Assembly (NCBI GenBank): GCA_900539605.1
Contig: UQCS01000001.1
Span: 17,169-81,168 of the forward strand
Direction of reading: 5' to 3'
Source: an uncultured Azospirillum sp.
GTDB lineage: Bacteria > Pseudomonadota > Alphaproteobacteria > RF32 > CAG-239
DNA: 64,000 nucleotides
Below the pieces are notes generated by a model. That model was not told where the DNA came from and did not search any database. It saw only the letters and a program-made list of their open reading frames with translations. This document shows positions 24,333-46,389 of the stretch, one piece after another; position 1 is the first letter of the stretch; every line of letters starts with the position of its first letter. Made by a program: the position numbers and the translations under genes.

Positions 24333-24348
24333 TCCGCCAGCATAAAAA

Positions 24349-25310: not shown

Positions 25311-25333
25311 AGTTTATCGAGGGGGATAAGCCG

Positions 25334-27565: not shown

Positions 27566-27597
27566 CGGTATATATATTTTTTAAAATATATATACCG
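27566..27597. promoter_or_regulatory. 32-bp perfect palindrome CGGTATATATATTTT-TT-AAAATATATATACCG
   Basis: 15-bp arms with a 2-bp spacer, verified base by base; lies between the primase operon and the next gene. Confidence 0.6.
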
Positions 27598-27650
27598 GCT
27601 GCCGTGACCATCGTCAGGAATGGAAAACAGGAACAACAAAGGAAATCACC

Positions 27651-28088: not shown

Positions 28089-28093
28089 CTATA

Positions 28094-28157
28094 TGTACAT
28101 ATTATCCTTGACATTGTACAAAATGTACATTATAATGTACACAGAGTACATTATAAT
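28094..28157 (+). promoter_or_regulatory. Consensus sigma70 promoter (TTGACA-17-TATAAT) overlapped by four TGTACA palindromic hexamers
   Basis: TTGACA 28108-28113, TATAAT 28131-28136; TGTACA at 28094, 28115, 28124, 28137; second TATAAT at 28152; RBS aaagg; ATG at 28171. Confidence 0.55.
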
Positions 28158-28170
28158 AAAGGAAAAATAA

Positions 28171-29193
28171 ATGGAAAGAATCACATTTTGGAATAATAAA
28201 GGTGGAACAGGAAAAACCAGCTTAGCTTTTCAAACAATTTGCCAATACGCACATGAAAATCCATCTGAAAAAATTTTGGTTATTGATGTTTGTCCTCAAG
28301 CAAATCTTTCAGAATTACTCCTTGGAGGATTACACCAAGGTGGAAGTAATATTTTATTACAAAGACAAGGGGCAACTCCTCGTGCAACCATTGGCGGCTA
28401 TTTTCAGCTTCGTCTTCCTTCTCCATATACGCCACCTTCATTTACAGCTCAAGACTTTTTAACTCAACCATATAAATACAATAAAAATATACCAGAAAAT
28501 ATAGACTTATTGTGTGGTGATCCAATGTTGGAATTGCAATCAAATGCTATTTCTACATTAGCTAATAACCAAATCCCCGGAACAAATACATGGATTGCAA
28601 TTATCGATTGGATTAATGATTTTTTAAAAAAAATTGAAAATGAATATGACATTGTATATTTCGACCTAAATCCTAGCTTTTCAATCTATACCCAAATTGC
28701 TTTGGCTGCTACATCTAAATTGCTCCTTCCTGTGATGGCGGATGATTCATCAAGACGTGCAATTCAGAATGCATTTTCTTTAATTTATGGGCTAAAGTTA
28801 CCATCCGAAATATACACAAAATATGCTTTTGCCCAAAAACTTAAAGATGAGGGGCGACAATTGCCTAAAGTACATATGATTTTGAAAAATCGACTAACCC
28901 AATACATGGGGCCAGCATCCGCTTTTACAACAGTTCTAAGTGCTATAGAGCAAGATATTACTGATCTTCTAAAGGTTCATCCTCAGTTGTTTACTTTTTC
29001 ATCTATTAAACAAGGAATTGTTGAAATTCGTGATTTTGGAACAACTGGCGTAGTATCTGCGGCTAGAGGATGCCCCTTCTATACGCTTCCCTATGGAAGA
29101 TTAGATTTGCTTGGACAACGGGTTCAAGTCAAAGAAGATTATAGAATAGACTGCGAGCATAATATTCGAGAAATAACTTCAAAAATTTTTTAA
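28171..29193 (+). CDS. ParA/MinD-like ATPase (340 aa) with C-terminal extension, orphan (no parB)
   Basis: Deviant Walker A NNKGGTGKTS at residues 8-17; Walker A' VIDVCPQAN; Walker B IVYFDLNPS. Region about 35% GC. Confidence 0.7.
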   Translation: MERITFWNNKGGTGKTSLAFQTICQYAHENPSEKILVIDVCPQANLSELLLGGLHQGGSNILLQRQGATPRATIGGYFQLRLPSPYTPPSFTAQDFLTQPYKYNKNIPENIDLLCGDPMLELQSNAISTLANNQIPGTNTWIAIIDWINDFLKKIENEYDIVYFDLNPSFSIYTQIALAATSKLLLPVMADDSSRRAIQNAFSLIYGLKLPSEIYTKYAFAQKLKDEGRQLPKVHMILKNRLTQYMGPASAFTTVLSAIEQDITDLLKVHPQLFTFSSIKQGIVEIRDFGTTGVVSAARGCPFYTLPYGRLDLLGQRVQVKEDYRIDCEHNIREITSKIF

Positions 29194-29469
29194 CAATTAA
29201 TCAGCCTAAAAATTTATTTTGGGCTGATTTTTTTATAAAAATCTGCCTTTTCAAGTGAAGTGTACTTCAAAGCCTTATTCTACAAGGGATTACGGCGGAA
29301 CGGACAGGCGGAAATTTTTCAGATGGAAGGCTGCAAAGGCCCGGATTTCCTTGAATCGTACTTCACATATTCTTTTACTTCACATTTTCGCAAAAATGGT
29401 TTATCAAACCAGGTATAATTGGGGCGTTGTATAGATACCGCTCCGGCGAAAAAGGAAAATCCCCCTCAT

Positions 29470-30027
29470 ATGATCATCACGGAACTCCAAATAAATGACG
29501 CTGCGGAACGGCAGCTGCATCTGATTGCTTCGCGGCAAATTCCCTTTGCCGTGGCGGCTTCTCTGACGGCAGTGGCAAAGATTGCCCAAGCCGAAGTGCG
29601 TGATCATATCAACGAAACCTTTACCATTCGCCGGAAAAGTGGTGGGTTTGCCAGCAGCATTGCCGTTAAACCGGCAACAAAGCAAAGCCAGACCGCAGAA
29701 GTTTATACAATGGCCCGACTTGCAGCTTTACAGCAGATCGGTGGGTTGCGGCAGCCACAGGGAAGCAACTTGGCAATCCCTTCCTATCAGAATTTGAGCG
29801 AAGTTAAGGTGCGGCGGTCAGTACGCAGTATTGCCGATGCCTTTGAAATGAAACTCCAAGATGGTCAGACGGCTTTAGTTCGGCGCAAAGGAAAAGGCTT
29901 GCGGTTTCTTTTTTTCCTCAGAAAACAGGCCGATGTGCCGAAACGCTTCAAAATGATTGAAATTGTTTTGGAAACAGCCAAACGGGAGTTTGGGCGGACA
30001 TTGGAAGCCAAAATGCGTGAACTATAA
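29470..30027 (+). CDS. Hypothetical protein (phage-like), alternative start 29419
   Basis: RBS aaagga before ATG 29470; no confident family. Confidence 0.4.
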   Translation: MIITELQINDAAERQLHLIASRQIPFAVAASLTAVAKIAQAEVRDHINETFTIRRKSGGFASSIAVKPATKQSQTAEVYTMARLAALQQIGGLRQPQGSNLAIPSYQNLSEVKVRRSVRSIADAFEMKLQDGQTALVRRKGKGLRFLFFLRKQADVPKRFKMIEIVLETAKREFGRTLEAKMREL

Positions 30028-30690
30028 GAACTCTTTCAGATCCGGATGCTGACGGACTTTTTCCTGAATTTGACGGAGCGATTGGGGATTAAGCCTGCGC
30101 ATAACAGTTTTGCGGTGGCTATGATTGTAAACGTTTCCGGTTCGGATATCTAAAACCTGATTGCCGTGATGTCCATGCAGGCGAAACGGCCACGAATCAT
30201 CTTCAGCGCTCAAGTGAAAACGCCAACGATAGGTATCAATCGTTGCTGTCCCCTCATAAAGGTCAGCATCTTCCGGATTGGGATCTTCAACGGACAAAAT
30301 AAAGAAAAATTCATAAATACGGCATAGAGAATCGAAAAAAGAATCTACCGCAGCAACATTATTGAACTCTCCGCTCAGACAGAGGGCATAATCGCAGGTG
30401 CGGATTTGGACATTAACTTCAAGAAAAGCTACTTGCAATGCGGAATGGTATTTTTTATCAATCGAAATGTTTATTTGCGTTTGATACTTTTTCCGCTCTG
30501 GGCAAAAATGAAGCCTTCCACATAATCTGCCGTTGAAAAACAGGTATTCGTTGATGACTTTTATGAGCGCATTGTCGCCATAGGTTTTGATTTTATGGTA
30601 TTTGGCAGAATTATTTGACATCGCTGTCCAAGCTAAAAAACAGGGTATCTTCCTGTGATATCTTGATATTTTGTGTCTGGGTATTGACAA
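30022..30690 (-). CDS. Hypothetical protein (222 aa)
   Basis: ORF only; convergent with the previous gene; no motif recognised. Confidence 0.4.
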   Translation of the reverse strand: MSIPRHKISRYHRKIPCFLAWTAMSNNSAKYHKIKTYGDNALIKVINEYLFFNGRLCGRLHFCPERKKYQTQINISIDKKYHSALQVAFLEVNVQIRTCDYALCLSGEFNNVAAVDSFFDSLCRIYEFFFILSVEDPNPEDADLYEGTATIDTYRWRFHLSAEDDSWPFRLHGHHGNQVLDIRTGNVYNHSHRKTVMRRLNPQSLRQIQEKVRQHPDLKEFL

Positions 30691-31117: not shown

Positions 31118-31288
31118 GGGTTCGCACCAAGTTCGCACCGAATTTGCACTAAATCCATATATTACAAGGTTTTGCGCGAATATTATTATAAAAAAGACAG
31201 GTTCGCACCTAATTCCGCTCAATCCCTTGTTTTGCATGCGATACAACGGAATTTAACCTATAACAACACAGGTTCGCAGTTGCGAACC
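31118..31288. repeat. Iteron-like repeats GGTTCGCAC(C) x4, last copy palindromic (GGTTCGCAgtTGCGAACC)
   Basis: Copies at 31118, 31131, 31199 and 31271-31288, immediately upstream of the C5-MTase start. Confidence 0.6.
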
Positions 31289-31315
31289 TCTTTTTTATGT
31301 AAGGAAGCAAGAATT

Positions 31316-32407
31316 GTGGATATACCTACCTGCCGAGTATTATCACTCTGTTCCGAGGTCGGAGGCCTTAACCTTGGACTTAAACTCGCAATGCCAACTA
31401 GCCGAACAGTCGCTTATATGGAGATCGAAGCCTATGCGTGCGAAATTCTGGTTAAACGCATGCAAGAAAAAATCTTGGATCCGGCACCTCTTTGGTCAGA
31501 TATCAAATCCTTCGATGGCAAACCATGGCGTGGAAAAGTGGATCTCATCACTGGCGGATATCCATGCCAGCCGTTTTCAGTTGCAGGAAAGAAACTCGGA
31601 GACAAAGACCCCAGACATCTCTGGCCCCACGTGCGAAGAATTGTTTCCGAAATTGAGCCAGCTCTCTGTTTCTTTGAAAATGTCGGAGGACATCTACAGC
31701 TGGGCTTTGAACAAGTCCACAATGACCTACAAAGACTGGGTTATAAAGTTAAGGCAGGCTTGTTCTCTGCGGAAGAAGTCGGTGCTCCGCATCGCCGTGA
31801 GCGCCTCTTTATCTTGGCCTACCGTAATGACGGCAGATGCAACAGTAGCGGAAACGATAACACCGAACGACAAGTATGTCCAAACCAAGAACGGTACTCT
31901 GCGCCGATACATCAAGAGCGGACACAACTGCAGTCTGGGATTAGCGAGAACGGCACGTCTCTGGCCGACGGTTTTGGTATCGGAAGCCAATGGCGCATCT
32001 CTCAAAAAAGTTCAGACCGGATATTCTCGGAGCCGTCTAAAAGAGGAAGTTTTGTTGTGGAAACAGCCGTTGAGATGGCGGACACCGAATGCCTCGGATG
32101 CCGAAGGCGGCGTGATGGAAATCAGAACGGAAACCTCTGCCTGGATCAAACTTCGCGATCATTCCGTACATGTAGCAAATTGCCTCTTTGGCCCCCCAGA
32201 CCAAATGACTTTGATGACTGGCGAAATATCCCGGAGAACCTTAAACCCGCGGTTTACCGAATGGCTGATGGGCTGGCCGACCGGGTGGACAGAGTTAGAG
32301 CCTGCGGCAACGGCGTGGTGCCTCTGGTGGCGGCGTATGCGTTTACAGTTCTTACGTCTAACCTTGAATTTACAACAACAGGTATCTTAAATGAACGAGA
32401 AAGTTAA
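31316..32407 (+). CDS. Phage-type DNA (cytosine-5)-methyltransferase; conserved motifs split between two overlapping open frames (possible frameshifts)
   Basis: Frame +2: motif I LSLCSEVGGLNLGL, IV GGYPCQPFS, VI ENV, VIII VGAPHRRERLFILA, X GNGVVPLVAAYA. Frame +0: WPTV / WRTPNASDAEGG and NPRFTEWLMGWPTGWT. RBS AAGGAAG 8 nt before GTG 31316. Confidence 0.7.
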   Translation: MDIPTCRVLSLCSEVGGLNLGLKLAMPTSRTVAYMEIEAYACEILVKRMQEKILDPAPLWSDIKSFDGKPWRGKVDLITGGYPCQPFSVAGKKLGDKDPRHLWPHVRRIVSEIEPALCFFENVGGHLQLGFEQVHNDLQRLGYKVKAGLFSAEEVGAPHRRERLFILAYRNDGRCNSSGNDNTERQVCPNQERYSAPIHQERTQLQSGISENGTSLADGFGIGSQWRISQKSSDRIFSEPSKRGSFVVETAVEMADTECLGCRRRRDGNQNGNLCLDQTSRSFRTCSKLPLWPPRPNDFDDWRNIPENLKPAVYRMADGLADRVDRVRACGNGVVPLVAAYAFTVLTSNLEFTTTGILNERES

Positions 32408-33722
32408 ATTAAAAGTTGAATATGTAAAGCTGGAAGAACTCATTCCTTTCGAGTTGAATGCCAGAACACACTCTAAGGAACAGGTCGGACAGATTGTCAA
32501 TTCCATCGGAGAGTTTGACTTCGTCAATCCTATTCTGGTCGGCGTCGACAATATGATTATTGCCGGTCATGGGCGCTTGTTGGCAGCGAAAAAAGCTGGA
32601 TTGGAAACGGTTCCGATCATCCGGCTCCCGCATCTTGACTATAACCAGTGCATGGCTTTGTCTCTGGCTGATAATAAAATTGCCGAAAATGCTGGTTGGG
32701 ATGAAGATAAAATCGTTGAAATTCTCGGAAAACTTGAGGATGCACATTTCAACATTGATATTTTGGGCTTTTCCAACAAAGAGCTTGAAAATTACCGTGA
32801 TGAATTTGAAACCAACGATGAAGACCTCGAGTTTGAAAACGAAGTCCCTGATTTTGTGGAAAAACCGGTTGCCAGGCGCGGCGATGTTTGGATTTTAGGC
32901 GACCACCGATTGTTATGCGGCGACGCAACAAGTCAGACAGATGTTGAAAAGGTTATGGACGGCGAAAAAGCCCAGATGGTTTTCACCGATCCGCTGTATA
33001 ATGTGAATTACGGCAATGCTTTGCGAGACAAACTGGCAGGAAAGGAAGGCGAGCGTTCAATTCTAAACGACAATCTTGGTGAGGGTTTCCCTGCTTTTCT
33101 GTATGATTTCTGCTGTAATATCTTAGAAGTCAATGTTGGTTCCTTTTATATTTGTATGGGCGGGTCGGAGTTGCATACTCTATACCAAGCCTTTACGGCT
33201 GCGGGCGGCAAATGGGAAGCCTACATCGTCTGGGTTAAAGACAAATTCACGCTTTCACGTTCCAAGCATCAACATCAGCACGAATGGATTTTGTTCGGCA
33301 ATCCTTACGAAGAACAGCATGAAGAAATCCTGTTGGGTGCGAAACCCGGTACGGCTCCGGCTTGCTATGGCGGACGCAACCAAACAGATGTCTGGGAATT
33401 TCCCCGACCGCAGAAAAGCGCACTGCATCCAACAATGAAGCCTATCGCACTGGTTGAAAGAGCCATCCGCAATTCCAGCAGGGTAACAGATATTGTCTTG
33501 GATACCTTCGGTGGCAGCGGTTCAACGCTGATTGCCTGTGAAAAAAGTGGCCGGCGCTGCCGGATGATTGAACTCGATGAGAAATATGTCGATGTTATTA
33601 TTAAACGCTGGGAGGAATATTCCCGAAAAAAAGCCGTTCATGAACAAACCGGCAAAAGTTATGATGCCCTCAAAATTGAAAGAGAAAAGGAAGAAACACT
33701 CACAGAAAAAGCTCCGAAATAA
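32391..33722 (+). CDS. ParB-like nuclease domain fused to N6A/N4C DNA methyltransferase
   Basis: N-terminal ParB domain (NPILVGVDNMIIAGHGRLLAAKKAG); MTase motif IV-like TDPLYN; motif I FGGSGSTLIACEKSGRRCRMIELDEKY. Confidence 0.85.
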   Translation: MNEKVKLKVEYVKLEELIPFELNARTHSKEQVGQIVNSIGEFDFVNPILVGVDNMIIAGHGRLLAAKKAGLETVPIIRLPHLDYNQCMALSLADNKIAENAGWDEDKIVEILGKLEDAHFNIDILGFSNKELENYRDEFETNDEDLEFENEVPDFVEKPVARRGDVWILGDHRLLCGDATSQTDVEKVMDGEKAQMVFTDPLYNVNYGNALRDKLAGKEGERSILNDNLGEGFPAFLYDFCCNILEVNVGSFYICMGGSELHTLYQAFTAAGGKWEAYIVWVKDKFTLSRSKHQHQHEWILFGNPYEEQHEEILLGAKPGTAPACYGGRNQTDVWEFPRPQKSALHPTMKPIALVERAIRNSSRVTDIVLDTFGGSGSTLIACEKSGRRCRMIELDEKYVDVIIKRWEEYSRKKAVHEQTGKSYDALKIEREKEETLTEKAPK

Positions 33723-33746
33723 TATGGAGCCTTACTTTTTTACAGG

Positions 33747-34559
33747 ATGACAATGAAATTCTTGGCTTGGTTTAGTTGTGGGGTTACGTCAGCAGTTACC
33801 TGTAAACTGGCGGTTGATAAATACGGCGATGATGTCGATATCTGGTATATTGAAACCGGTGCGGCACATCCAGACAATCACCGATTTATTGAAGATTGCG
33901 AAAACTGGTATGGCAGAAAAATTCTGACGGCTCAACATTCTAAATTTAAGAATCCTTTGGAAATTGCTGCCGTTGAAGTTTTTAATACACCGTGGGGTGC
34001 CCCCTGCACTAAATATTTAAAGAAGGAAGTCCGCCAAAGAATCGAAAAAGATTACTCTGAACCAATCCACATATTTGGCTTTGAGTATAATAAAAAAGAA
34101 ATTAACCGGGCCTTTCGGTGGAAGCAGCAGAATTCCTCAAGAGTTTATTTCCCGCTTATTGAACAAGGGTGGAACAAACGGCGTTGTCTGCAGGAGCTTT
34201 TGCTTAACAAGATCGAAATCCCTGCCATGTACCTGCTCGGATACAATAACAACAACTGTATCGGCTGTTTTAAAGGTGGCAAAGGGTACTGGAACAAAAT
34301 ACGGACAGATTTCCCGGACATTTTCAGACAAACTGCAGAGTTGGAACTAAAAACAAAACATACCTGCCTCAAAGATCGTGGCAAACAACTCTATCTGGCT
34401 GAATTAGAACCAGATGCAGGTAAACACCAAAACATTGACATTCCCGAATGCGGAATATTTTGTGAGCTTGAAATGGCCGGATTGCCAATCAAAGATATTA
34501 ACGAAATTTTAGAATTCATAAAATTTAACCCGGAAAAACTAATGAATACAGCAAAATAA
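33747..34559 (+). CDS. PAPS-reductase-like PP-loop family protein (phage-type)
   Basis: N-terminal AWFSCGVTSAV resembles a PP-loop; C-terminal CIGCF Cys pair; commonly next to ParB-MTase in prophages. Confidence 0.55.
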   Translation: MTMKFLAWFSCGVTSAVTCKLAVDKYGDDVDIWYIETGAAHPDNHRFIEDCENWYGRKILTAQHSKFKNPLEIAAVEVFNTPWGAPCTKYLKKEVRQRIEKDYSEPIHIFGFEYNKKEINRAFRWKQQNSSRVYFPLIEQGWNKRRCLQELLLNKIEIPAMYLLGYNNNNCIGCFKGGKGYWNKIRTDFPDIFRQTAELELKTKHTCLKDRGKQLYLAELEPDAGKHQNIDIPECGIFCELEMAGLPIKDINEILEFIKFNPEKLMNTAK

Positions 34560-35006: not shown

Positions 35007-35013
35007 TGATCAG
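34817..35013. repeat. Two copies of a 99-bp imperfect tandem repeat (encodes the RTX-like repeat)
   Basis: Units start at 34817 and 34916 (caatatctttt/accg...). Confidence 0.6.
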
Positions 35014-35179
35014 CGCCTATCACCTTTTGCTTTTGATGAGAGAATATGATTTTATTAAGGAAATAGTGGATGAGATGGTTATACAATGAGAAACGGCTGG
35101 AAAATACCAGAATCTGCTTGAAAAACAGAATAATCACGGTAAAATTGATTAAATTTAGCTGAATTTAATATGAAAGTCT

Positions 35180-37951
35180 ATGAACGAAAACAATAAAATA
35201 ATTGCAAATGCTCTTTCTTTGCGAACACCGCAGAGGAAAAGCCTTGATTTGCTTGAGCAAATTGTACAAAAGATTGCTCTGAAACCGGATGCCGACCTCA
35301 AGGAAGCCTTGGCAGCCATTCATGAAGTTGTGCCTAAGATAGAGGATTTTGAACGAAAATTTCCTTCTGTTTGTTTTGCTCTGGCAACCGGTGTCGGCAA
35401 AACCCGCCTCATGGGAGCGTTTATCGCTTATCTACATTTGGAAAAAGGAATCAAGAACTTTTTTGTTTTGGCTCCCAACTTGACTATTTACAATAAACTC
35501 ATTGCCGATTTTACACCGAATACTCCGAAATATGTCTTTCCGGGAATTCAGGAATTTGTAATGAACCAGCCGCAGGTTATTACCGGCGAGACCTACTTGC
35601 AAGTTGGCGACCTGTTGGATAAAGCCAATCAAGAGCGGGTTAAAATCAATATTTTCAATATTTCAAAAATAAATTCTGACAAAGATAGCCGCGGAACCCC
35701 CAGAGTACGTGCCTTTTCGGAATACCTCGGACAGTCATATTTTGATTATCTGTCCAGTCTTGATGACTTGGTCATTGTTATGGACGAAGCACACCGGTAC
35801 CGGGCAAGTGCCGGAATGAAAGCTATCAACGAGTTAAAGCCTGTTTTAGGCTTGGAGTTAACGGCAACACCGAAATCTACCGGCTCTAAAGGACAAAGAT
35901 TTAAGAATATCGTTTATGAATATTCATTGGCAGAAGCGATCCGTGACGGATATGTGAAGAAACCGGCCATTGTCGGGCGTTCCAATTTTGATACCGACCG
36001 TTATACTGAAGAAGCGATCAATGAAATTAAAATCAAAGACGGTTTACAAATCCATGAAACGATTAAGGCTGAGTTGGAAGTTTATTCGGCCAACCACAAT
36101 GTTCGCAAAGTCAAACCTTTTGCGCTTATTATTGCCCGAAACATTGAACATGCGCGTGAACTTAAGACCTTAATAGATAACGATGACTTTGAGGACGGAC
36201 GTTATAAAGGAAAAGTGATTGAAGTAGATTCCCAGGCCAGCGGCGCAGAAAAAGATGAAACGATTGAAAAACTGCTGCGGGTCGAAAAATATGACGAACC
36301 AACGGAAGTTGTCATTCACGTTGATATGCTGAAAGAAGGCTGGGACGTCAATAACCTTTGCACAATCATTCCGCTTAAGGCAGCTGATTCCAAGATATTG
36401 GTGGAACAGTCCATTGGTCGCGGATTGCGTCTGCCGTTTGGCGAATGTACCGGAGTTGATGCGATTGACCGGCTGAATATCATTGCCCATGACAAATTCC
36501 AGGCAATTGTCAAAGCAGCGGAAGACCAGCAGTTTGAATTCCAGAAAATACAATTGGAAGAAGATACTGCGACAGGAAAAGTCAAGGCTGTTGACAATGT
36601 TTCCCTTTTGGAACAGCAAATAACCCGGATTATTTCCGAACAAATCGTTTCTCCGGCAGAGAAAAAGACGAGCGAATCTGCCATAGAAGCTAAAAAAGCT
36701 ACGCTGGAAACAGCTCCAATTCAACCGGCCTTGGATGTTTACAAATCTAACAAAGTCAATGAAATTGCCTCAGCAACACTGGATGTTATTGAGGATTTCG
36801 GGAAAAAAGTCAGTTCGTCCAAGGAATTGGCCAAACCCGAGAATAAGGCTCAACTGGTAGAAGGAGTCAAAGCTGTCCTTGCCGCAAAGACAACTGAACC
36901 ATCCCTGCAGTTTGACACAGAACAGGTAGACATTGATAAAACGGTCGATGCCGTGGTGGAACAATTTATCAATTTCAATATAGATATTCCAAAAGTAATT
37001 GTCAGTTTCAAATTTAAGGAACCGGGGTTTACTTTCGGACATTTTGATGCGGACGTTAGTAAATTTGCAGAATTAAAGGCAATTACACAAAAAATTCTGG
37101 TAAAAGACCTTGTCTCCGGCAAAAGAGAAGAAAAAGGCGTGGCTAAATTTCAAAAGCTCTATGATAACCTTGAAGACTATGTTCTTGAACCGTTATTAAA
37201 CAATCTGGAAGTTAACTACGATACTGAGAGTGATTTACTGTACCACCTTATAGGACAGGTAATTGAGTATCTTCGCGGTTATGCTGAGGATGAGGAAGAA
37301 CTGGAAAAAGTCCTGTTCTTTAACGGGCAATACATCTCCGATGAACTGTTAGCCCAGATGAAACAGCACTTGATTCCGGGAGAATGCGAGGTTGCGACCA
37401 CTGTCGGCAGCGCATATGCATCCCTCAGAACTTATAAAATTATTGAAAATGAACAGTTTCCGGCAGTTTCTTTCCGTAATAAGCCTCAGGATAAAACCAA
37501 GATTAAATCAATGGTGTTTGAAGGCTTTGATAAATGCCTGTTTCCTAAACAGAAATTCGACAGCGATACGGAACGACAGCTGGCCTGTCTCCTGGAAGAT
37601 ACGCCGGATGTCCTTAAATGGCTGAAACTCAACGATGACCGGGCAAAATCAATTTTCACCCTGCGTTATACTGACCCTGATACCCGGGAAGTAAAAGGGT
37701 ATTATCCGGACTTTGTTATTGAAACGACTGATGCCAAATACATTGTTGAAACTAAGGCCCGCAATAAAATGAGCGATGCGGCAGTCTTGGCCAAGGCAAA
37801 AGTTGCCAAACAGTGGTGTCAGACGGCAAACGATTTTGAAACCAGATATCGCGGAAAAAATTGGATATATTTGCTTGTCCCTGACGATATGCTGTTTGAT
37901 GCTACGCTGACATTTGAAAAATTAACCAGTATTTGTATTGTGAGAGAATGA
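35180..37951 (+). CDS. Type III restriction enzyme Res-like subunit (SF2 DEAH helicase + C-terminal PD-(D/E)xK nuclease)
   Basis: Motif I ALATGVGKT; motif II VIVMDEAHRY; motif III ELTATPK; motif VI QSIGRGLRLP; C-terminal YYPDFVIETTDAKYIVETKARNK. Confidence 0.8.
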   Translation: MNENNKIIANALSLRTPQRKSLDLLEQIVQKIALKPDADLKEALAAIHEVVPKIEDFERKFPSVCFALATGVGKTRLMGAFIAYLHLEKGIKNFFVLAPNLTIYNKLIADFTPNTPKYVFPGIQEFVMNQPQVITGETYLQVGDLLDKANQERVKINIFNISKINSDKDSRGTPRVRAFSEYLGQSYFDYLSSLDDLVIVMDEAHRYRASAGMKAINELKPVLGLELTATPKSTGSKGQRFKNIVYEYSLAEAIRDGYVKKPAIVGRSNFDTDRYTEEAINEIKIKDGLQIHETIKAELEVYSANHNVRKVKPFALIIARNIEHARELKTLIDNDDFEDGRYKGKVIEVDSQASGAEKDETIEKLLRVEKYDEPTEVVIHVDMLKEGWDVNNLCTIIPLKAADSKILVEQSIGRGLRLPFGECTGVDAIDRLNIIAHDKFQAIVKAAEDQQFEFQKIQLEEDTATGKVKAVDNVSLLEQQITRIISEQIVSPAEKKTSESAIEAKKATLETAPIQPALDVYKSNKVNEIASATLDVIEDFGKKVSSSKELAKPENKAQLVEGVKAVLAAKTTEPSLQFDTEQVDIDKTVDAVVEQFINFNIDIPKVIVSFKFKEPGFTFGHFDADVSKFAELKAITQKILVKDLVSGKREEKGVAKFQKLYDNLEDYVLEPLLNNLEVNYDTESDLLYHLIGQVIEYLRGYAEDEEELEKVLFFNGQYISDELLAQMKQHLIPGECEVATTVGSAYASLRTYKIIENEQFPAVSFRNKPQDKTKIKSMVFEGFDKCLFPKQKFDSDTERQLACLLEDTPDVLKWLKLNDDRAKSIFTLRYTDPDTREVKGYYPDFVIETTDAKYIVETKARNKMSDAAVLAKAKVAKQWCQTANDFETRYRGKNWIYLLVPDDMLFDATLTFEKLTSICIVRE

Positions 37952-38667
37952 TGGAGTTACCTGTAATTAATATTTATTGTGACGAATCTTGTCATTTAGA
38001 AAATGATAAGCACACTTCGATGGTTCTTGGAGGTGTATCTTGTCCGATCAGCAAGGTGAGAGATATTTCCGTAAGAATAAAGGAACTCAAAGAAAAATAT
38101 GGAATGTCTAAATATCGAGAAATTAAATGGGTTAAGGTTTCTCAGGGAAAAGCAGATTTCTATCATGAACTCATTGACATTTTTTTGACTAACGAATGTT
38201 TACGCTTTCGTGCAGTAAAAGTTAAAGATAAAAGCTGTCTCTCTCATGCTAAATTCCATCAAACCCATAATGAATGGTATTATAAAATGTACTACACCAT
38301 GCTTCGGCAGGTTATTCAGCCATATAAAAATTATAATATTTATCTGGATATTAAAGATACAGTTGGCGGAGAGCGGGTTGCAAAATTAAAAGAATTTTTA
38401 AACAATTTGAATCCAAATAAAAATACTAGTGAAATACTTAAAATCCAACAAATTCGTTCGTTTGAATCTGAAATTATTCAACTAGCAGATATATTAATTG
38501 GGGCTGTGGGATATCAGGATAGACTGCCTGAAATTAAAACAGCACCTAATGCAACGAAATTAAGTTTATGTAAAAAAATTGAAGAAGGTTTACAAATTAA
38601 TTTTAACAGGAAAACTCCTTATCTTAACTCAAAATTTAATTTATTGATTTGGGAAGGACAACAATGA
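37948..38667 (+). CDS. DUF3800-family protein
   Basis: N-terminal VINIYCDESCH matches the DUF3800 YxDES signature. ATG 37948 overlaps the Res stop TGA (ATGA coupling). Confidence 0.6.
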   Translation: MMELPVINIYCDESCHLENDKHTSMVLGGVSCPISKVRDISVRIKELKEKYGMSKYREIKWVKVSQGKADFYHELIDIFLTNECLRFRAVKVKDKSCLSHAKFHQTHNEWYYKMYYTMLRQVIQPYKNYNIYLDIKDTVGGERVAKLKEFLNNLNPNKNTSEILKIQQIRSFESEIIQLADILIGAVGYQDRLPEIKTAPNATKLSLCKKIEEGLQINFNRKTPYLNSKFNLLIWEGQQ

Positions 38668-39152
38668 GTCTGGTTCTCCCCGATTTAATAGATATTGACA
38701 TCAATAAATATACAGAAGAATTGGAAAATCTGTATAGAATTTATTTGGATGAATTATATATACCACAAATCGAAGTTTTAGGAAAACCCATAACCTGCCG
38801 TCAAAATCCTGAAGACGCTGGAAAACATGAGTGTTTTTGGCATTTGATAACCGAAGGGGATCCCGAGAGAACACCCGATTTTAATCGCATCAGGAGATTA
38901 CATTGGTGTGCTTATGTTCTTTTACACTATACTGACAGAGAAATAGTATGTTGGGAGAAAGAATGTACTACTCCTAAAGGTAAACAACGCAGAATTTTCT
39001 TTTGGCTTCCCAACGAAAAATATTATGTTATTCTTGGTGAAAATAGAGCAAAAACATCTTTCGAGTTAATCACAGCGTATTGTGTCAGCTATTACGGTAC
39101 ATTAAGATGCATTCAGAGAGATATGTCCTCTTGTCCTGATCCTAGGTTTTAA
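38664..39152 (+). CDS. Hypothetical Cys/His-rich protein (163 aa), coupled to the DUF3800 gene
   Basis: ATG 38664 overlaps the DUF3800 stop (ATGA); RBS ggaagg; residues KHECFWH, HWCAYVLLHY, CWEKEC suggest metal binding. Confidence 0.5.
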   Translation: MSLVLPDLIDIDINKYTEELENLYRIYLDELYIPQIEVLGKPITCRQNPEDAGKHECFWHLITEGDPERTPDFNRIRRLHWCAYVLLHYTDREIVCWEKECTTPKGKQRRIFFWLPNEKYYVILGENRAKTSFELITAYCVSYYGTLRCIQRDMSSCPDPRF

Positions 39153-39270
39153 AAAGCGGAGACCGCTCAAGAGAACGGTCCCGAAAATCCTTCTACAACA
39201 TGGTAGATGATCAATAACTGTATATTACATTTAGTATTATTCTTGTCAATATGTAATATTGCTATATCTT

Positions 39271-39315
39271 CTTAGTGACTGATGAATTTGAAATTCAAAT
39301 TCATCAGTCACTAAG
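39271..39315. repeat. 45-bp perfect palindrome (22-bp arms, 1-bp centre) CTTAGTGACTGATGAATTTGAA-A-TTCAAATTCATCAGTCACTAAG
   Basis: Verified base by base; no adjacent U-tract on either strand. Confidence 0.85.
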
Positions 39316-39555
39316 AAATTTCTACTATTACTGTGTAGTAATTTAACACATTTATTTTAATTTGTCAATACTACCGCGCTATTTTTCAACAATTTTTAAA
39401 TAAAAAAGAGGTAATGCAGTTGAAACCACCAGTAACGGTTTCTCAGCTGAACCTCTGTATGAGAGTAAAATACAGAAGCGATAAAATGTCAAGAACAGAT
39501 AAAAATAAAATAGAGAGATACTAATAAAATTCATTGTAATTGTTCTTTAGTTTTT

Positions 39556-39584
39556 TTGACTTTTTAGATTTCCTCCGATATAGT
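39556..39584 (+). promoter_or_regulatory. Putative sigma70 promoter of mod (TTGACT-17-TATAGT)
   Basis: Hexamers at 39556-39561 and 39579-39584; RBS gaggaaa; ATG 39622. Confidence 0.45.
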
Positions 39585-39621
39585 GCGTAAAAAGTAAAAT
39601 ATCCTAGTGTTGAGGAAATAA

Positions 39622-41265
39622 ATGTCAGATAAATTGCAAAAATTAGAGCTGGTATGGCCGGGAAAGAATGAGCATGTTGACGTCGAACCGCGGATTTTAA
39701 TTGAGGATGCGGAAAAATCATACTCGGCGAATTCTAAGATTCAGGAAAAAATAAACCGGCAGCTTTTTGAGCAAGAACCGGAAATTGCTCCGACTTTTGA
39801 CAACATGCTTATCCACGGTGATAATTTATTGGCATTAAAAGCTCTGGAAGCCAAGTATTCAGGCCAAATTAAATGTATTTATATAGATCCGCCATATAAT
39901 ACAGGTAATGCTTTTGAACATTATGATGATGGATATGAGCATTCTATTTGGCTTTCGTTAATGCGAGAGCGATTGGAAATTTTGAAAAATCTATTGGCCG
40001 ATGATGGAAGTATTTGGATATCATTAGATGATAATGAGCAAGCCTATTGCAAGGTGCTTTGTGATGAAATATTTGGTAGGAAAAACTTTGTCTGTAATGT
40101 TATTTGGCAAAAAAAATACTCTCCGGCTAATGATGCAAAATGGTTATCTGACAATCACGATTTTGTTATTGTTTATGCGAAAAATAAAATGATATGGCGC
40201 CCCAATTTGCTACCGAGAACGAATGAACAAAATAAATATTATAAGTACGATGATAATGATGGACGAGGTAAGTGGCGTTCTGATAATGTATTAGTAAAAA
40301 CATTTTCGAAAACAGGAGTTTTTGCTATTGTTAATCCCAACACAGGGGTTGAGTATTATCCTCCAGAAGGAAGTTGTTATAGATTTAATGCAGAAACAGC
40401 AAAAAGAATGTTACAAGAAAATCGTTTTTATTTTGGGAAAGATGGGAAAGGCGCCCCTCAATTGAAAAGATATTTATCGGAAGTTAAACAGGGTATGACT
40501 CCTTTAACTATTTGGTCATACGAAGAAGTAGGGCATAATCAAGATGCAAAATTGGAAGTTAAACAATTTAACCCTACTGATATTTTTGCCACTCCCAAAC
40601 CAGAAAGGCTCCTTTACCGTATTTTAACTTTAGCCACTAAACCCGGCGATTTAGTCCTTGATAGTTTTTTAGGCTCAGGTACAACAGCTGCGGTCGCTCA
40701 TAAAATGGGGCGGCGCTGGATTGGGATTGAGATGGGAGACCACATTTATTCCCACTGTTTGCCGCGACTGAAGAAAGTTATTGATTGTGAAGATGCCGGT
40801 GGTATCACGAAATCAGTTAAATGGCAGGGCGGCGGCGGTTTTAAATTCTATGAACTTGGCTCTACCCTGATTGTAACGGATAAACATGGGCGGCAGGTTA
40901 TTTCGGACAAATATAATCCGGAAATGTTGGCTGAAGCTATGTGCAAGCTGATGGGATACAAGTACGCTCCAGATAAGGAAACTTACTGGAAACAAGGTTA
41001 TTCCAGCGAAAAGAGTTTTATTTTCACAACAACGATGAATGTTGAGGAACAGTTGCTGGCAGAGATGTCTCAAGCCCTAGGGGACAGCAACCTGCTGATC
41101 TGCTGCGGCGCTTTCACCGGTAACAAAACGGCTTATGACAATATTACCATTAAGAAGATCCCTCAGGCAATTCTTAAGAAATGCCAATGGGGCTCTGCCG
41201 GTTATCCGTTACCAATTCGGGAAGATTTTTCTGATGAAGATTTTGAATTTGAGGATGAAGAATAG
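39622..41265 (+). CDS. Type III R-M Mod subunit (N6-adenine methyltransferase, beta class)
   Basis: N-terminal LELVWPGK; IHGDNLLALKAL; motif IV CIYIDPPYNTG; downstream FLGSGTT (AdoMet binding). Confidence 0.85.
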   Translation: MSDKLQKLELVWPGKNEHVDVEPRILIEDAEKSYSANSKIQEKINRQLFEQEPEIAPTFDNMLIHGDNLLALKALEAKYSGQIKCIYIDPPYNTGNAFEHYDDGYEHSIWLSLMRERLEILKNLLADDGSIWISLDDNEQAYCKVLCDEIFGRKNFVCNVIWQKKYSPANDAKWLSDNHDFVIVYAKNKMIWRPNLLPRTNEQNKYYKYDDNDGRGKWRSDNVLVKTFSKTGVFAIVNPNTGVEYYPPEGSCYRFNAETAKRMLQENRFYFGKDGKGAPQLKRYLSEVKQGMTPLTIWSYEEVGHNQDAKLEVKQFNPTDIFATPKPERLLYRILTLATKPGDLVLDSFLGSGTTAAVAHKMGRRWIGIEMGDHIYSHCLPRLKKVIDCEDAGGITKSVKWQGGGGFKFYELGSTLIVTDKHGRQVISDKYNPEMLAEAMCKLMGYKYAPDKETYWKQGYSSEKSFIFTTTMNVEEQLLAEMSQALGDSNLLICCGAFTGNKTAYDNITIKKIPQAILKKCQWGSAGYPLPIREDFSDEDFEFEDEE

Positions 41266-41267
41266 AA

Positions 41268-41648
41268 ATGAAAATAGACTATGATTTCTTGAAACAGATT
41301 TTAACTGTAATGATTGATAATGAAAGTCATTTTATTCGTACAGATCAATTAACAGATAAACTTGATCTTGACATTTGCAATAAATTACTTTGGGATAAGT
41401 TTTGGGGGCATATGTTTATTTTAAATGATAATCTTTGTTTGGATTGTGATGATGAAAGTTTGGGAACTTTTCGAGAACAGGATGGCTGTATTTCCTATCG
41501 TTCTCAAACTTTTCGCCTTACAGCTCAAGGATATCAATTTTTAGATATTCTGAAAAATGATACAATCTTCCGTAAAATCAAAGATTTTAGCGTTTCAACC
41601 GCTATCGAGGTTGGAAAAGCTGCTTTGATAAATTGGATAGTAAAATAA
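41268..41648 (+). CDS. Hypothetical protein (126 aa), coupled to mod
   Basis: ATG 3 nt after the mod stop; RBS gagga; possibly YjcQ/DUF2513-like (weak). Confidence 0.45.
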   Translation: MKIDYDFLKQILTVMIDNESHFIRTDQLTDKLDLDICNKLLWDKFWGHMFILNDNLCLDCDDESLGTFREQDGCISYRSQTFRLTAQGYQFLDILKNDTIFRKIKDFSVSTAIEVGKAALINWIVK

Positions 41649-41657
41649 ATGGTCATC

Positions 41658-44528
41658 TTATAAAAAAGTGGTAAATGTACAATCAAAAACAAGCTCGGAA
41701 GAATAATCAAACTTAAGAGCCTTCTTTTTCTTTTCTAAAAGGCGCTTATAGGCAAGATTTATTGCTTTTTCCTTGTCCAGGGATGCAAAGTTATCCATTT
41801 CGTATTTTTCCTGTAAATGGGCAATTTTCTTACGGAGGGCCAGTTTCCTGCTGATTATTTTTTCTGTAAGCAACTTTTTATGCGCGGCATCAATTTTATT
41901 TTTTATCTTGGCTGCTCCTAAACGGATGCCATTAATTTCATCATATTGCCAACGGTTCAACTTCTCAGTTTCCTCCCTTAAAAGTTCTGCCGTTGCTTTT
42001 CTATCGTTATCTGCAGCGGATTTTATATCATTATCATGCAAAGACACCAACAAATTGGCAAAACCATAATCACGGATTGGCTCCACAGCTACAATATTGT
42101 CAAAAAATGTTTCTGGAGAAATATCCAGCTTTTCTCCTTCATGGCTGATAAAAGTACAAATAAGGCGTTGGTTGATATCCGGAGCCGTTTGCCTATACAG
42201 ACTGACATTGACACGCCCCTGTAATCCGGATTTTAGCTTGGGTGTCTTTATAATCAGATGCGCCGGTGGTGTTTTAAGCTCTAGTGCAGTGGTCAGAACC
42301 CTTTTCCCGAATGCAGATTGAGGGTTATATGCTGCAGGTTGGCGGCGAAGCGCTTTTTTATCCTTGTAATACATATAAGTCGTATCGCGCTTGGTATAAT
42401 CCAAACGATGGGAAAAATTGACGGCAAAATTAATCTCCGAATGAACATCTGGAAAAACCTGAGCCTCAAATTGTCCGAAAGTTTTTGTATCCTCATTGAT
42501 AAAAAAGCCCGGTTCAATAATTTTGAGAATATTTTTTGTCAGATTCCAGAAAACCTGCTTGTCCCGGCTCAAAAAGGTCTCAACACGAGTCTGAGTTACA
42601 TGGAGCTTTTCCTGCAACGTCGGATTCAAATTTTCCAAAACAAGCTGTTTTGCCTGTTCAATACCTTGTTCCCTCTTAAAATTCAACATTTCCTGTAAAG
42701 CGTCAAAGGCTTTGGCTATTTCTTCTTCTGTCCGGCATTCATCTAAGATTTTCGCGACGGCTCGTTCAAAGTCGACACCGTCAAACATGGAGCCGAGAAT
42801 TTCGTCGCTGGCTCCGAAAACGCCATCAAACAGCTTAAATTTATATTGCAGGATATCGTATAAACGAATATCAGCCAAATTTTTCTTATTAATGAAGTTA
42901 ATGATGACAACATCCTGTTTCTGCCCATAGCGGTGGACACGTCCGATCCGCTGTTCTATTCGCTGCGGGTTCCACGGCAGATCATAATTGATCAAAAGAG
43001 AGCAGAACTGTAAGTTTAATCCTTCCGCTGCCGCTTCCGTTGCAATCATAATTTCTGCATCATCCCGAAAGTGATTGACAATTGCCTGCCGCATGTCTGT
43101 CGCCTTAGAAACTGTTACTTTTCCGGGATACCGGCGGCAATATTCCTTGTATATCCGATTATGCAGCGGAGAGTTATTATTGCCGCTAAAAGTGATAATT
43201 TTATCCTGAAAGCCGTTTTCCGTCAGAAAATCAAACAAATACTCCAAAGTACGATAACTTTCGGTAAAAATGATGACTTTCCGCTGTTTTTTCTTTGCAA
43301 AACCTTCCTCTATGGCTGAAATCAGCTTCAGAGTTTTGCCATCAACCTTAATACTGTCGGCAAGAGCAATCAAATTGTCTAATAACTTTCCTTCCGGATC
43401 TATTTCCATCGGATTAAGTATCTTCCCGCGGCCTTTATAAAGCCTGTTGTAATTCTTAATTTCCGGGTCATATTGTGATGTCATGTCGTAAATGTTTATT
43501 AAATCGGTCACATCTTCGCCGTTGTCCATAAGCCCCTGAAGCATGGAAACCTTATTTCTTATTCCCTCTAACGTACCTTTGACGGCAGCAGTAGAGGAAC
43601 TCATGAGCTTACGAATCATCATGATAACTAAATTACGGGCATGACTTTGTATCCCAAATTTCGCATGAAGTTTAATATACAATGAAACCTGATTATATAA
43701 TTCCTCTTCTTTCGGCGTAGGTTCAAAAGCTACGGTCATGGCTTCGCGGTTCGTATAACGAATATACTCCAGAACATCTTTGCGCAGTGTGCGATGCAGA
43801 ACTGATTGTAACCGCTGGCGAAGTTCTTGATGTTTTCGTTCCGTATATAAATAGGTATCAATAAAAGAATCCTGATTGCCCAAGATATTCGCATCAATGA
43901 GAGACACTAGTGAGAAAATATCCATCAGGGAATTTTGAATCGGCGTTGCCGTTAACAGCAGTTTCTTCGTATTTACAAAGGTTTTATAGATAATATTAGC
44001 TGTTTTATTATCCCCTTTATAAAAATTCCGAAGTTTATGTGCTTCATCAAAAACCACTAAATCCCACGGATACGGGCTAAAATCCTTAGTTCCTTGTACA
44101 ACGAAATTATAAGAAACTATAGTTACACCTTCAAAGTCAAATGGACTGATACCTTTTTTGCGGTGGGGCTGATGCCAGATACTACTGTCAACGATTTGGG
44201 CCGGAAGATTAAATTTCTCCTCCAGTTCGTTTTTCCATTGTGTTCGTAAAGAAGCGGGCGCAATTACCAGCAGATGTTTTTTGCTGCGGGAAAAATACTC
44301 CGACAGGATAATTCCGGCTTCAATGGTTTTACCAAGACCTACCTCGTCAGCGAGAATGGCCCCTTGAGAAACAGGAGATTTCAAAGCAAACAAGGCGGCA
44401 TCAATCTGATGCGGATTAAGATCAATATTGGACGTTACCAAAGAACCGGATAATTTATTAATATCCGTATTATTGGCCGATGTTTGAACCTCTAAGGCCC
44501 AATATTTGCTTTGATAGTCTGAATTCAT
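41658..44528 (-). CDS. SNF2-family helicase (956 aa) with about 350-aa uncharacterised C-terminal domain
   Basis: Motif I LADEVGLGKTIEAG; motif II VVFDEAHKLRN; helicase-C QRIGRVHRYGQ; convergent with mod. Confidence 0.85.
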   Translation of the reverse strand: MNSDYQSKYWALEVQTSANNTDINKLSGSLVTSNIDLNPHQIDAALFALKSPVSQGAILADEVGLGKTIEAGIILSEYFSRSKKHLLVIAPASLRTQWKNELEEKFNLPAQIVDSSIWHQPHRKKGISPFDFEGVTIVSYNFVVQGTKDFSPYPWDLVVFDEAHKLRNFYKGDNKTANIIYKTFVNTKKLLLTATPIQNSLMDIFSLVSLIDANILGNQDSFIDTYLYTERKHQELRQRLQSVLHRTLRKDVLEYIRYTNREAMTVAFEPTPKEEELYNQVSLYIKLHAKFGIQSHARNLVIMMIRKLMSSSTAAVKGTLEGIRNKVSMLQGLMDNGEDVTDLINIYDMTSQYDPEIKNYNRLYKGRGKILNPMEIDPEGKLLDNLIALADSIKVDGKTLKLISAIEEGFAKKKQRKVIIFTESYRTLEYLFDFLTENGFQDKIITFSGNNNSPLHNRIYKEYCRRYPGKVTVSKATDMRQAIVNHFRDDAEIMIATEAAAEGLNLQFCSLLINYDLPWNPQRIEQRIGRVHRYGQKQDVVIINFINKKNLADIRLYDILQYKFKLFDGVFGASDEILGSMFDGVDFERAVAKILDECRTEEEIAKAFDALQEMLNFKREQGIEQAKQLVLENLNPTLQEKLHVTQTRVETFLSRDKQVFWNLTKNILKIIEPGFFINEDTKTFGQFEAQVFPDVHSEINFAVNFSHRLDYTKRDTTYMYYKDKKALRRQPAAYNPQSAFGKRVLTTALELKTPPAHLIIKTPKLKSGLQGRVNVSLYRQTAPDINQRLICTFISHEGEKLDISPETFFDNIVAVEPIRDYGFANLLVSLHDNDIKSAADNDRKATAELLREETEKLNRWQYDEINGIRLGAAKIKNKIDAAHKKLLTEKIISRKLALRKKIAHLQEKYEMDNFASLDKEKAINLAYKRLLEKKKKALKFDYSSELVFDCTFTTFL

Positions 44529-44658
44529 AGCGAAATGTTATCCAATAATATTTTAAGATTCAATGAAAAGCTTGAGGTAAAATGCGATATTTGGTTGAAA
44601 CACACATAAGAAAAAGTTAGCATCATATAAAATAACAGAAATAAAATAGGGATAAATA

Positions 44659-44958: not shown

Positions 44959-46389
44959 TTACCAGCGGCAGTTGTCGCGCCCCCATGGGCGAGGGCCGTA
45001 AGCTTCCGGTTCGGCAACCGCCGGCTGAGGCTTTTGCTGTTCTTTGAACAACTCGGCAGCATTGAGGTTTTGCAGATAATCGGTCAGTTCTTTTTGGCGC
45101 TCTGCATCAGAAGACGTGCGGTTGAGATAATTGCGCACTGCCTTGATTTCTGCTTCGCTGAGACCGGTTTTATCTTCAATCTTAGCGGCTAGGCTGCGCC
45201 GTACTTCCTGTTTTATATTTTCGGGCAAACGGCTGACTTTATCCATTTCAACATATTTTTCCAGTCCGCTTAACAACGGCAGATCCAACTCCCGGACCCC
45301 CGGATTATTGCCGACAGCGGCCCAAATGTCGCAAATTCGTTTTTTCAGTTCCACTCGGTCGCCGACGACGATGCCGCCGATATCTTTATCATCCAAATTA
45401 TATAATCCGGCCGTAACCAGCTGAGCCTGATAGCCTTTAGCATATTGTTCGGTCCACATTTTGCAGGTACCCTGCACCATCAGTTTTTGTCCTTCGGGAC
45501 CGAGCGGATCCATTCCCGCCGCAACTGCCTGCTGGAAAAAAGCAAAATGGATATCACCCTGATCAAACACCTGCAACGCTTTTTGGGGCGGAACACCCTG
45601 CTCGATTTTCTGCTGATAATAACAGATACACAGATACAATTCAGATGCAACCGCCGCCATTTCGTCGTTCATATTGACAATCGCGCGTTGTTCCGGACTG
45701 ATACCGGGACCGTAGACATGGTGACGATCGGCGCATTCATGACCACGCTCATGAAGCCGGGTTCGCGGCATCACACGATTCACCTTGGAGATAATGGCTT
45801 CGTCTTTAGCCGATAAGGTCTCATTTTTGCCTTTCACCAGTTTATTGAGATTGATGCTTTTGCTGCTGAAACTGTACCCACCCAAACGCACGCCACCGTC
45901 CGGACAACGCACTTCGGAAAGCGTTTTCCGGCGGATAATAACTTTGCCGGCATTTTCGCGATAAAAAGCTTCACGTTGCTGGCGAATATACGCTGCTTTG
46001 AGGTCGCCGGCGTGTTTAGCATTGACGATCATACGGGTTTTCGGCCCCATGCTGACAATCTTTATCTCACCTTTGCGATCTTTTGCCGCTTTCAATCCCA
46101 TTTTTTGGGCCAGTTGATATTCGTCATTTTCGGTCGCTTGCACATAATCCAGATAATCGGCCGTATCTTCACGGTTTGCCGCATCTGCTTTCATCTCTTC
46201 AACGTCCAGAAGATGTTCGTTATTGGCAACCTTCGGATCTTGCGGCAATGTTTTTTCCGCTTTGGCCGTGCCGGCGTTTAAGGCCATCGCCAGCGACAAA
46301 GTTTCAATTGCCGTTTTGGACGCATTCAAACGACCGACGGCATTTTGCACTTTTTTCATCAAATTTTCAAAAGATATTTTGTCAGACAT
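44959..46389 (-). CDS. Hypothetical protein (476 aa) with HExxH-like motif
   Basis: Host-like GC; LHERGHECADRHH contains HExxH; otherwise unrecognised. Confidence 0.55.
   Translation of the reverse strand: MSDKISFENLMKKVQNAVGRLNASKTAIETLSLAMALNAGTAKAEKTLPQDPKVANNEHLLDVEEMKADAANREDTADYLDYVQATENDEYQLAQKMGLKAAKDRKGEIKIVSMGPKTRMIVNAKHAGDLKAAYIRQQREAFYRENAGKVIIRRKTLSEVRCPDGGVRLGGYSFSSKSINLNKLVKGKNETLSAKDEAIISKVNRVMPRTRLHERGHECADRHHVYGPGISPEQRAIVNMNDEMAAVASELYLCICYYQQKIEQGVPPQKALQVFDQGDIHFAFFQQAVAAGMDPLGPEGQKLMVQGTCKMWTEQYAKGYQAQLVTAGLYNLDDKDIGGIVVGDRVELKKRICDIWAAVGNNPGVRELDLPLLSGLEKYVEMDKVSRLPENIKQEVRRSLAAKIEDKTGLSEAEIKAVRNYLNRTSSDAERQKELTDYLQNLNAAELFKEQQKPQPAVAEPEAYGPRPWGRDNCRW

Follow-up and report, generated by a model that had tools for sequence, protein, structure and literature searches.

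A conserved SNF2 ATPase beside Type III-like restriction-modification genes in a probable mobile defence cassette of an uncultured Azospirillum sp.

The closest described counterpart of the locus considered here is EcoR22I of Escherichia coli ECOR22, a Type III restriction-modification (R-M) system with an associated DrmD-like SNF2 helicase (10.1101/2023.04.06.535777). The locus encodes a Res-like restriction subunit, a Mod methyltransferase and an SNF2 ATPase, and lies in a 64,000-nucleotide stretch of DNA (the window, whose own positions are used throughout) from an uncultured Azospirillum sp. (assembly GCA_900539605.1, contig UQCS01000001.1, positions 17,169 to 81,168, forward strand). The same gene set is found in both cases on what appears to be a mobile island: a DrmD/RapA-like SNF2 helicase, a Mod, and a Res that carries a PD-(D/E)xK nuclease. 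An initial annotation of the sequence had suggested that the arrangement may be an unclassified variant in which a helicase assists restriction, which stays a hypothesis, but the association of the three genes is already on record, in passing, for EcoR22I; the kind is known but barely described, and the literature search returned that one statement and no paper that describes systematically the trio, how widespread it is or what its helicase does. The comparison was made through the trio of E. coli E24377A, which belongs to the long size class described below and is taken to be of the EcoR22I type; its SNF2 protein has the same length as that of the window and is 44% identical to it over residues 5-669. 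The E. coli trios have long forms of Mod (~1040 amino acids, aa) and Res (~1126 aa) and co-directional genes in the order SNF2, Mod, Res, whereas in the window both proteins are short (547 and 923 aa), the gene order is Res, embedded genes PDC-M04A/B, Mod, embedded 126-aa gene, and the SNF2 gene is convergent. The nuclease residues D1024 and D1043 reported for EcoR22I Res (10.1101/2023.04.06.535777) fit the long size class.

The Res-like subunit of the window (923 aa; 35180-37951, forward strand) matches Pfam ResIII (1e-24), a TnsA-like endonuclease and PADLOC REase_III (1.6e-167), and has the superfamily 2 (SF2) helicase motifs GVGKT near residue 75 and DEAH at residue 202 and a C-terminal PD-(D/E)xK nuclease motif (PDF...ETK). 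Mod (547 aa; 39622-41265, forward strand) is a beta-class N6-adenine methyltransferase that matches Pfam N6_N4_Mtase (9e-50), PADLOC MTase_III (5e-181) and, in the PDB, the Mod subunits of Helicobacter pylori (6k0w, 3e-55) and EcoP15I (3e-33); its motifs follow the order DPPY (residue 89), recognition domain, FLGSG (residue 349). The motifs of both proteins are intact, and by these matches and motifs Mod is identified as a genuine Type III Mod, as the initial annotation had assigned it, and Res likewise has the SF2 motifs and the PD-(D/E)xK nuclease of a Type III enzyme. Both resemble the subunits of classical Type III enzymes such as EcoP15I (Mod2Res1), in which a beta-class Mod has a central recognition domain and Res combines an SF2 ATPase with a PD-(D/E)xK nuclease. 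The locus differs from EcoP15I in that the two Res proteins are only remotely related (a weak PDB match, 1e-4), in that res precedes mod, with two embedded genes and a 470-bp gap between them, and in that a third conserved gene is present. This third gene encodes the SNF2 ATPase (956 aa; 41658-44528, reverse strand), with Pfam SNF2-rel_dom at residues 43-294, Helicase_C at residues 405-535 and intact SNF2 motifs (GLGKT, DEAHKLRN and QRIGRVHRYGQ), from which the ATPase is predicted to be catalytically intact. Its stop codon is separated by 9 bases (41649-41657) from that of the convergent 126-aa open reading frame (ORF) that follows Mod. The coordinates, spacings and motifs that had initially been reported for Mod, the 126-aa ORF and SNF2 were all recovered.

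Mod and Res genes of the Type III-like kind show tight linkage to this SNF2 family. Homologs that span the whole length of the protein, its C-terminal region included, are numerous: a scan of genomes with an alignment of the C-terminal region matched at least about 600 stretches, each of two public collections gave at least about 600 matches, and related SNF2 genes are present in about 250 of 5426 complete E. coli genomes. In the best 80 of the at least about 600 genome loci, ORFs were called and labelled with phmmer seeds; 40 of these loci are informative, having at least 8 kb on both sides, and 36 of the 40 have both Mod and Res, the SNF2 gene itself being truncated in two of the four exceptions. 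The reciprocal scan of metagenomes with Res as the seed has SNF2 in 35 of its 40 informative loci, the other 5 lacking it despite at least 7 kb upstream; a further 40 loci were too short to judge. Of 50 triads, 41 have all three genes on one strand, with SNF2 first, Mod second and Res last, and five have the convergent layout of the window, which is a clade-specific variant. Among the 39 co-directional loci, Mod and Res are adjacent in 26; SNF2 directly adjoins Mod in 15 and is 0.8-3.6 kb away from it in the other 24; in locus L010 (Mod-Res-359 aa-SNF2) neighbouring genes overlap or abut. The pairwise distances of the three proteins are correlated (r = 0.57 for SNF2 and Res, 0.41 for SNF2 and Mod, 0.92 for Mod and Res), values that none of 500 permutations reaches. 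Two size classes are apparent, one with Mod of ~550-650 aa and Res of ~890-1000 aa, the other with Mod of ~1030-1140 aa and Res of ~1070-1145 aa. The hosts are Alpha-, Beta- and Gammaproteobacteria, Bacteroidota, Planctomycetota, Cyanobacteria, Desulfobacterota and one archaeon, and the trio is also carried by Klebsiella, E. coli and Salmonella plasmids and by the E. coli E24377A chromosome, where the RefSeq names are generic.

The three genes were also transferred together. Comparison of the window with two related loci, L001 and L002, by blastn delimits a shared block of 9.6 kb (35009-44600), Res through SNF2, which begins just 5' of Res, ends just beyond the SNF2 start and is 95%, 84% and 93% identical in three blocks; outside 35009-44600 the same comparison finds no similarity, and the surroundings of the cassette differ between the window and L001. 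Because the window and L001 have only the Res-to-SNF2 stretch in common, in different surroundings, the cassette was co-transferred as one piece. Its G+C content is 0.33-0.42, compared to ~0.48 in the flanks, and the closest homolog of its SNF2 protein, at 94% identity, is on gut-metagenome contigs that carry the same genes; relatives have additional genes that are absent from the window, one of 212 aa before Mod and one of 296 aa after the 126-aa gene. The central recognition segment of Mod (40107-40585) has no nucleotide similarity to L002, which is otherwise 88-95% identical, and this suggests that the specificity of Mod was recently swapped. The cassette sits in a larger insertion that adjoins a tRNA-Lys gene (22156-22231) and also contains mobile-element genes, and both flanks of the window are made up of alphaproteobacterial housekeeping genes; no direct repeat of at least 13 nt of the tRNA-Lys 3' end was found when the ends of the island were sought, and E. 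coli genomes gave no match to the region in a megablast search. In the nearest genome, that of an uncultured mouse-gut alphaproteobacterium (L011, 8184-12133), an intact SNF2 gene stands beside a 109-aa Res remnant and a tRNA-Lys gene, so that the cassette is present there in decayed form, perhaps at an insertion site of the same kind. The region is probably a single horizontally transferred defence cassette in which a Type III-like R-M pair is combined with a conserved SNF2 gene. The functional tie of SNF2 to Res and Mod that had been proposed from the sequence is supported by co-transfer, by correlated divergence and by synteny, which is conserved in about 90% of informative loci whether the search starts from SNF2 or from Res.

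RapA (HepA), a Swi2/Snf2 ATPase that recycles RNA polymerase and releases it from DNA, is the protein that the SNF2 protein of the window most resembles in predicted structure over its whole length, spacer and C-terminal domains included. The helicase core (residues ~35-560) is followed by a helical spacer, then by a small alpha+beta domain and lastly by a beta-sheet domain into which a two-helix coiled coil is inserted. Pfam has no match beyond about residue 545, and the unannotated tail is ~400 aa long, not ~350 aa as initially thought. In an AlphaFold model of the tail, covering residues 561-956 and based on 24 family members (mean predicted local distance difference test score, pLDDT, of 84; the full-length model reaches ~90 over residues 650-956), the helical spacer and small alpha+beta domain are followed by a beta-sheet whose last strand comes after two coiled-coil helices of 45-65 residues, a topology already described in RapA and BrxHII for their C-terminal domains (PMC12839542). 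Foldseek comparison of the tail with the PDB gives RapA as the only significant match (E about 1e-5), and the full-length model aligns with RapA from end to end (E 9e-18, ~1040 columns), the top match being an N-terminally truncated RapA, whereas eukaryotic remodellers and ZorD match in the core only. The domain of unknown nature in the initial annotation is thus predicted to be a RapA-type C-terminal module, and the nuclease or reader fold for which a search had been advised did not appear: RapA was the only significant match, the conserved positions of the tail are Gly, Phe, Trp, Tyr, His and Thr together with an EKLNRW motif in the coiled coil, and the tail is predicted not to be a nuclease because it has no conserved acidic or lysine catalytic set. 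Points that count against the assignment are template-modelling scores to RapA of ~0.3 and the lack of any match when the C-terminal alignment was compared by hhalign with the E. coli RapA sequence; because that profile comparison gave nothing, the likeness of the tail to RapA is a structural one, and the architecture common to RapA, BrxHII and DrmD is recognized in the predicted models and the Foldseek match to RapA, at the level of structure and not of sequence.

The likeness does not make the protein a housekeeping RapA. Its ATPase core is 33-46% identical to that of RapA in blocks, but the first helicase motif is near residue 37, and because the core begins there the Tudor-like N-terminal region with which RapA binds RNA polymerase is absent. 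A housekeeping RapA is rejected on this ground, on an NCBIfam RapA score of 160 bits against a cut-off of 576, and on the truncated RapA being the best structural match; the SNF2 gene also lies in a low-G+C defence cassette, not in a housekeeping context. The initial annotation had reasoned that a RapA-like housekeeping protein found without defence neighbours in related genomes would speak against a role in defence; the RapA-like fold is there, but the protein is not of the housekeeping kind and is not found without defence neighbours.

The most fitting reading of the SNF2 protein is a conserved motor that is accessory to the Type III system, and that it is a functionally linked accessory is likely. 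In the proposed mechanism, Mod would methylate adenine at an asymmetric site, Res would contribute an SF2 helicase and a PD-(D/E)xK nuclease, the PDC-M04A/B and DUF2513-like 126-aa genes would ride in the operon as cargo, and SNF2 would be an accessory translocase of double-stranded DNA that shares its DNA substrate with the Mod-Res complex. It would clear bound proteins, or release or recycle stalled Mod-Res as RapA releases RNA polymerase; restriction would thereby become more efficient or broader, although SNF2 would not be essential to it. Slow dissociation from DNA has been reported for Type III enzymes (PMC3413136). A remodelling or recycling role of this kind, which is suggested by analogy with RapA, can be put forward only tentatively.

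A RapA-like SNF2 helicase with an adenine methyltransferase is a shared module of DISARM class 1, ARMADA and BREX type 3 (PMC12458937, PMC12839542) and is recognized in the DUF499-centred systems too, and the locus might be a remnant or variant of class 1 DISARM (DrmD with DrmMI) or of ARMADA, BREX type 3 or Hma/MANTIS, an origin that is very improbable. DISARM class 1 (DrmD/DrmMI), ARMADA (ArmA/ArmB), BREX type 3 (BrxHII) and the Hma/BR/MANTIS systems likewise have an SNF2 gene beside an asymmetric-site adenine methyltransferase gene, and the operons of DISARM class 1, ARMADA, BREX type 3 and Hma/MANTIS likewise host embedded defence genes. The kinship to DrmD that the initial annotation had recognized holds, as the best PADLOC and NCBIfam matches of the SNF2 protein are DrmD models. 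However, the PADLOC matches to DrmD (1.8e-184) and HmaA (1.6e-53) cover the helicase core only, and so does the NCBIfam alignment to DrmD_b (model positions 23-658 of 868), which scores 617 bits against a cut-off of 950; the helicases of the plasmid trios show the same NCBIfam scoring pattern. The methyltransferase of the window is a Type III Mod (PF01555), whereas theirs are of the PglX, DrmMI or DUF1156 type, and its effector is a Type III Res, whereas theirs is YprA/DUF1998, PglZ or a fused nuclease; among the relatives, the Res protein of L008 aligns end to end with the canonical Type III Res model. The ORFs between 22 and 49 kb were scanned against Pfam singly and the flanks were judged on the 25 commonest of 48 matched families, all of them housekeeping; within this scope no window ORF matches DUF1998, PLD, MotA/B, PglZ, BrxC or DUF499, and YprA/DUF1998, PLD, PglZ, BrxC and DUF499 are not among the families listed for the embedded genes of related loci. 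Class 1 DISARM is rejected on the DrmD_b score, the absence of DrmA (YprA-like), DrmB (DUF1998) and DrmC (PLD) from the matches of these scans, and a methyltransferase that is not a PF13659-type DrmMI. Zorya is rejected on the absence of a match to ZorA/ZorB (MotAB-like) in the same scans and a ZorD score of 75 against a cut-off of 1500, and Hma, DUF499-centred BREX-related or MANTIS systems and BREX type 3 on the absence of DUF499, BrxC, DUF1156, PglX and PglZ matches in Pfam and PADLOC. That the partner genes of DISARM and Zorya are missing had been noted correctly at the outset.

The SNF2 protein might instead be an independent single-gene defence or mobile-element factor that neighbours Type III genes through defence clustering and an insertion hotspot. 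The operon does accept foreign genes (97 embedded ORFs across the loci fall into ~60 unrelated clusters), and several further observations weigh against an accessory function. The SNF2 gene of the window is convergent with the Mod operon and must therefore be transcribed separately; SNF2 is absent from 5 of the 40 informative Res-seeded loci, and one Mod-Res pair without it has an isoleucyl-tRNA synthetase gene (IleRS) directly upstream of Mod; and in L011 SNF2 survives beside a decayed Res. In EcoR22I, mod and res alone suffice to restrict unmodified lambda and to give cell death triggered by the anti-restriction protein Ocr, and transposon suppressors of Ocr-induced death were obtained only in mod and res; the SNF2 gene has no phenotype there, since the system methylates, restricts and senses Ocr in its absence (10.1101/2023.04.06.535777). 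By analogy SNF2 would be dispensable for the core activities of the window system. An independent factor is nevertheless unlikely, since SNF2 is present in ~90% of loci from many phyla in a preferred position and orientation, while no embedded family occurs in more than five loci; the divergence of the three proteins is correlated, the limits of the cassette enclose all three genes, and reading frames are adjacent or overlapping in many loci. There is also a small chance that SNF2 is a regulator or sensor that licenses methylation or restriction on incoming DNA or guards against anti-restriction proteins: related methylation-based systems need an ATPase to load the methyltransferase (MANTIS preprint), EcoR22I-type systems sense Ocr (10.1101/2023.04.06.535777), and fast-diverging C-terminal alpha+beta domains have been read as sensors in BrxHII (PMC12839542). 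Against such a role, EcoR22I methylates, restricts and senses Ocr without SNF2, and no ligand-binding or effector domain is indicated by the sequence of the protein. Classical Type III enzymes cleave only between inversely oriented unmodified sites, and phages escape when all of their sites are on one strand. It is conceivable, if improbable, that the SNF2 motor alters these rules, permitting cleavage at single or same-orientation sites or overcoming DNA-mimic or DNA-coating counter-defences; a directional translocase would then collide with site-bound Mod-Res or strip proteins from incoming DNA, and the trio, rather than being a Type III system with a passenger, would form a restriction class of its own with a very wide distribution.

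As an accessory motor, the SNF2 protein belongs to a wider problem, the job of the helicase being, to our knowledge, known in almost none of DISARM class 1, ARMADA, BREX type 3 and Hma/MANTIS. For studying the function of RapA-like helicases in defence based on methylation, the SNF2-Mod-Res trio is the simplest setting, since Mod and Res together make up a Type III enzyme that is well understood; the trio is experimentally tractable in that it is common, occurs across many phyla and is carried by Klebsiella, E. coli and Salmonella plasmids. The operon is also a useful place to look for new defence genes, PDC-M04 and the DUF2513-like gene found after methyltransferase genes being two examples.

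Across the loci, the operon is a hotspot in which defence genes are embedded. The families found there include AAA_21/AAA_15 with DUF4276 (PADLOC HEC-01), GmrSD, ApeA, Abi_2, Fic/SoFic, RhuM, DUF1016 and Schlafen-like proteins, and a universal fourth gene of the operon was not found, the largest cluster of embedded ORFs having five members. In the window, a two-gene PADLOC candidate system lies between Res and Mod: a DUF3800 protein, PDC-M04A (37933-38667, forward strand; Pfam DUF3800 2e-13, PADLOC 5.7e-84), and PDC-M04B (167 aa; 38649-39152, forward strand; PADLOC 1.5e-28, PHROG 16230 2e-20). The same pair lies between SNF2 and Mod in locus L089, and the literature search found no mention of PDC-M04. 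The 126-aa ORF (41268-41648, forward strand) is DUF2513-like (Pfam DUF2513 4e-5, below the cut-off; PHROG 585 1e-11) and is a variable passenger of the operon. With only 2 nt between the TAG stop codon of Mod (41263-41265) and its ATG at 41268, it is predicted to be translationally coupled to Mod, in agreement with the tight coupling initially described. Its close homologs are always located after Mod in this cassette, and a 43%-identical homolog (L176, 8001-8405; loci L176/L177) is 10 nt after an MmeI-type R-M gene. Because the DUF2513-like gene trails a methyltransferase gene in two unrelated R-M types, its position hints that the protein may be a recurrent R-M-associated accessory or regulator.

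Candidate control sites are found in the 470-bp gap between PDC-M04B and Mod. Two terminator-like hairpins from a consensus scan (39159-39316) follow the embedded pair, one G+C-rich (39159-39182) and the other with a perfect 20-bp stem (39270-39316). A promoter-like sequence (TTGACT-17-TATAGT; 39556-39584, forward strand) precedes Mod and fits the consensus at 10 of 12 positions. The consensus promoter of the initial annotation is therefore present as a site, but the AT-rich stretch has 46 matches of this kind where 35 +/- 5.5 would be expected, and because they are hardly above chance the site is weak evidence alone. The promoter-like region is also kept in L001, where it precedes the extra 212-aa gene. 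The stretch directly 5' of Mod is the place that this 212-aa gene occupies in relatives, and the window is without it.

Between the tRNA-Lys gene and the cassette, the stretch 22156-30690 encodes a DUF4143 ATPase, a primase/helicase-like protein (Toprim+AAA_25), a ParA-like ATPase and ORFs with weak PHROG matches to phage-tail proteins; an integrase was not found in this interval. Just outside the cassette, at 31172-34559, are three co-directional genes of mobile-element type, encoding a C5-cytosine methyltransferase, a ParB-domain N6/N4 methyltransferase and a PAPS-reductase-like protein (weak SspD match). On the other side, upstream of the SNF2 gene and outside the shared cassette, a 476-aa ORF (44959-46389) has no match in Pfam, NCBIfam, PADLOC or PHROG. 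A helix-turn-helix (HTH) regulator upstream of SNF2 was sought; there is none in the window and none that is universal among relatives. Small HTH genes of the excisionase/HTH_17 or Xre type end at the SNF2 start or overlap it in nine related loci (L008, L021, L027, L040, L051, L054, L060, L091 and L092), a position that resembles that of a controller protein. In L004 (1033-9950), beside a 55%-identical trio, a WYL-domain regulator is encoded directly upstream of SNF2, and the same locus also has a 1155-aa helicase (HEPN_Swt1 and SNF2 core) with a 1166-aa partner, which may be another defence system.

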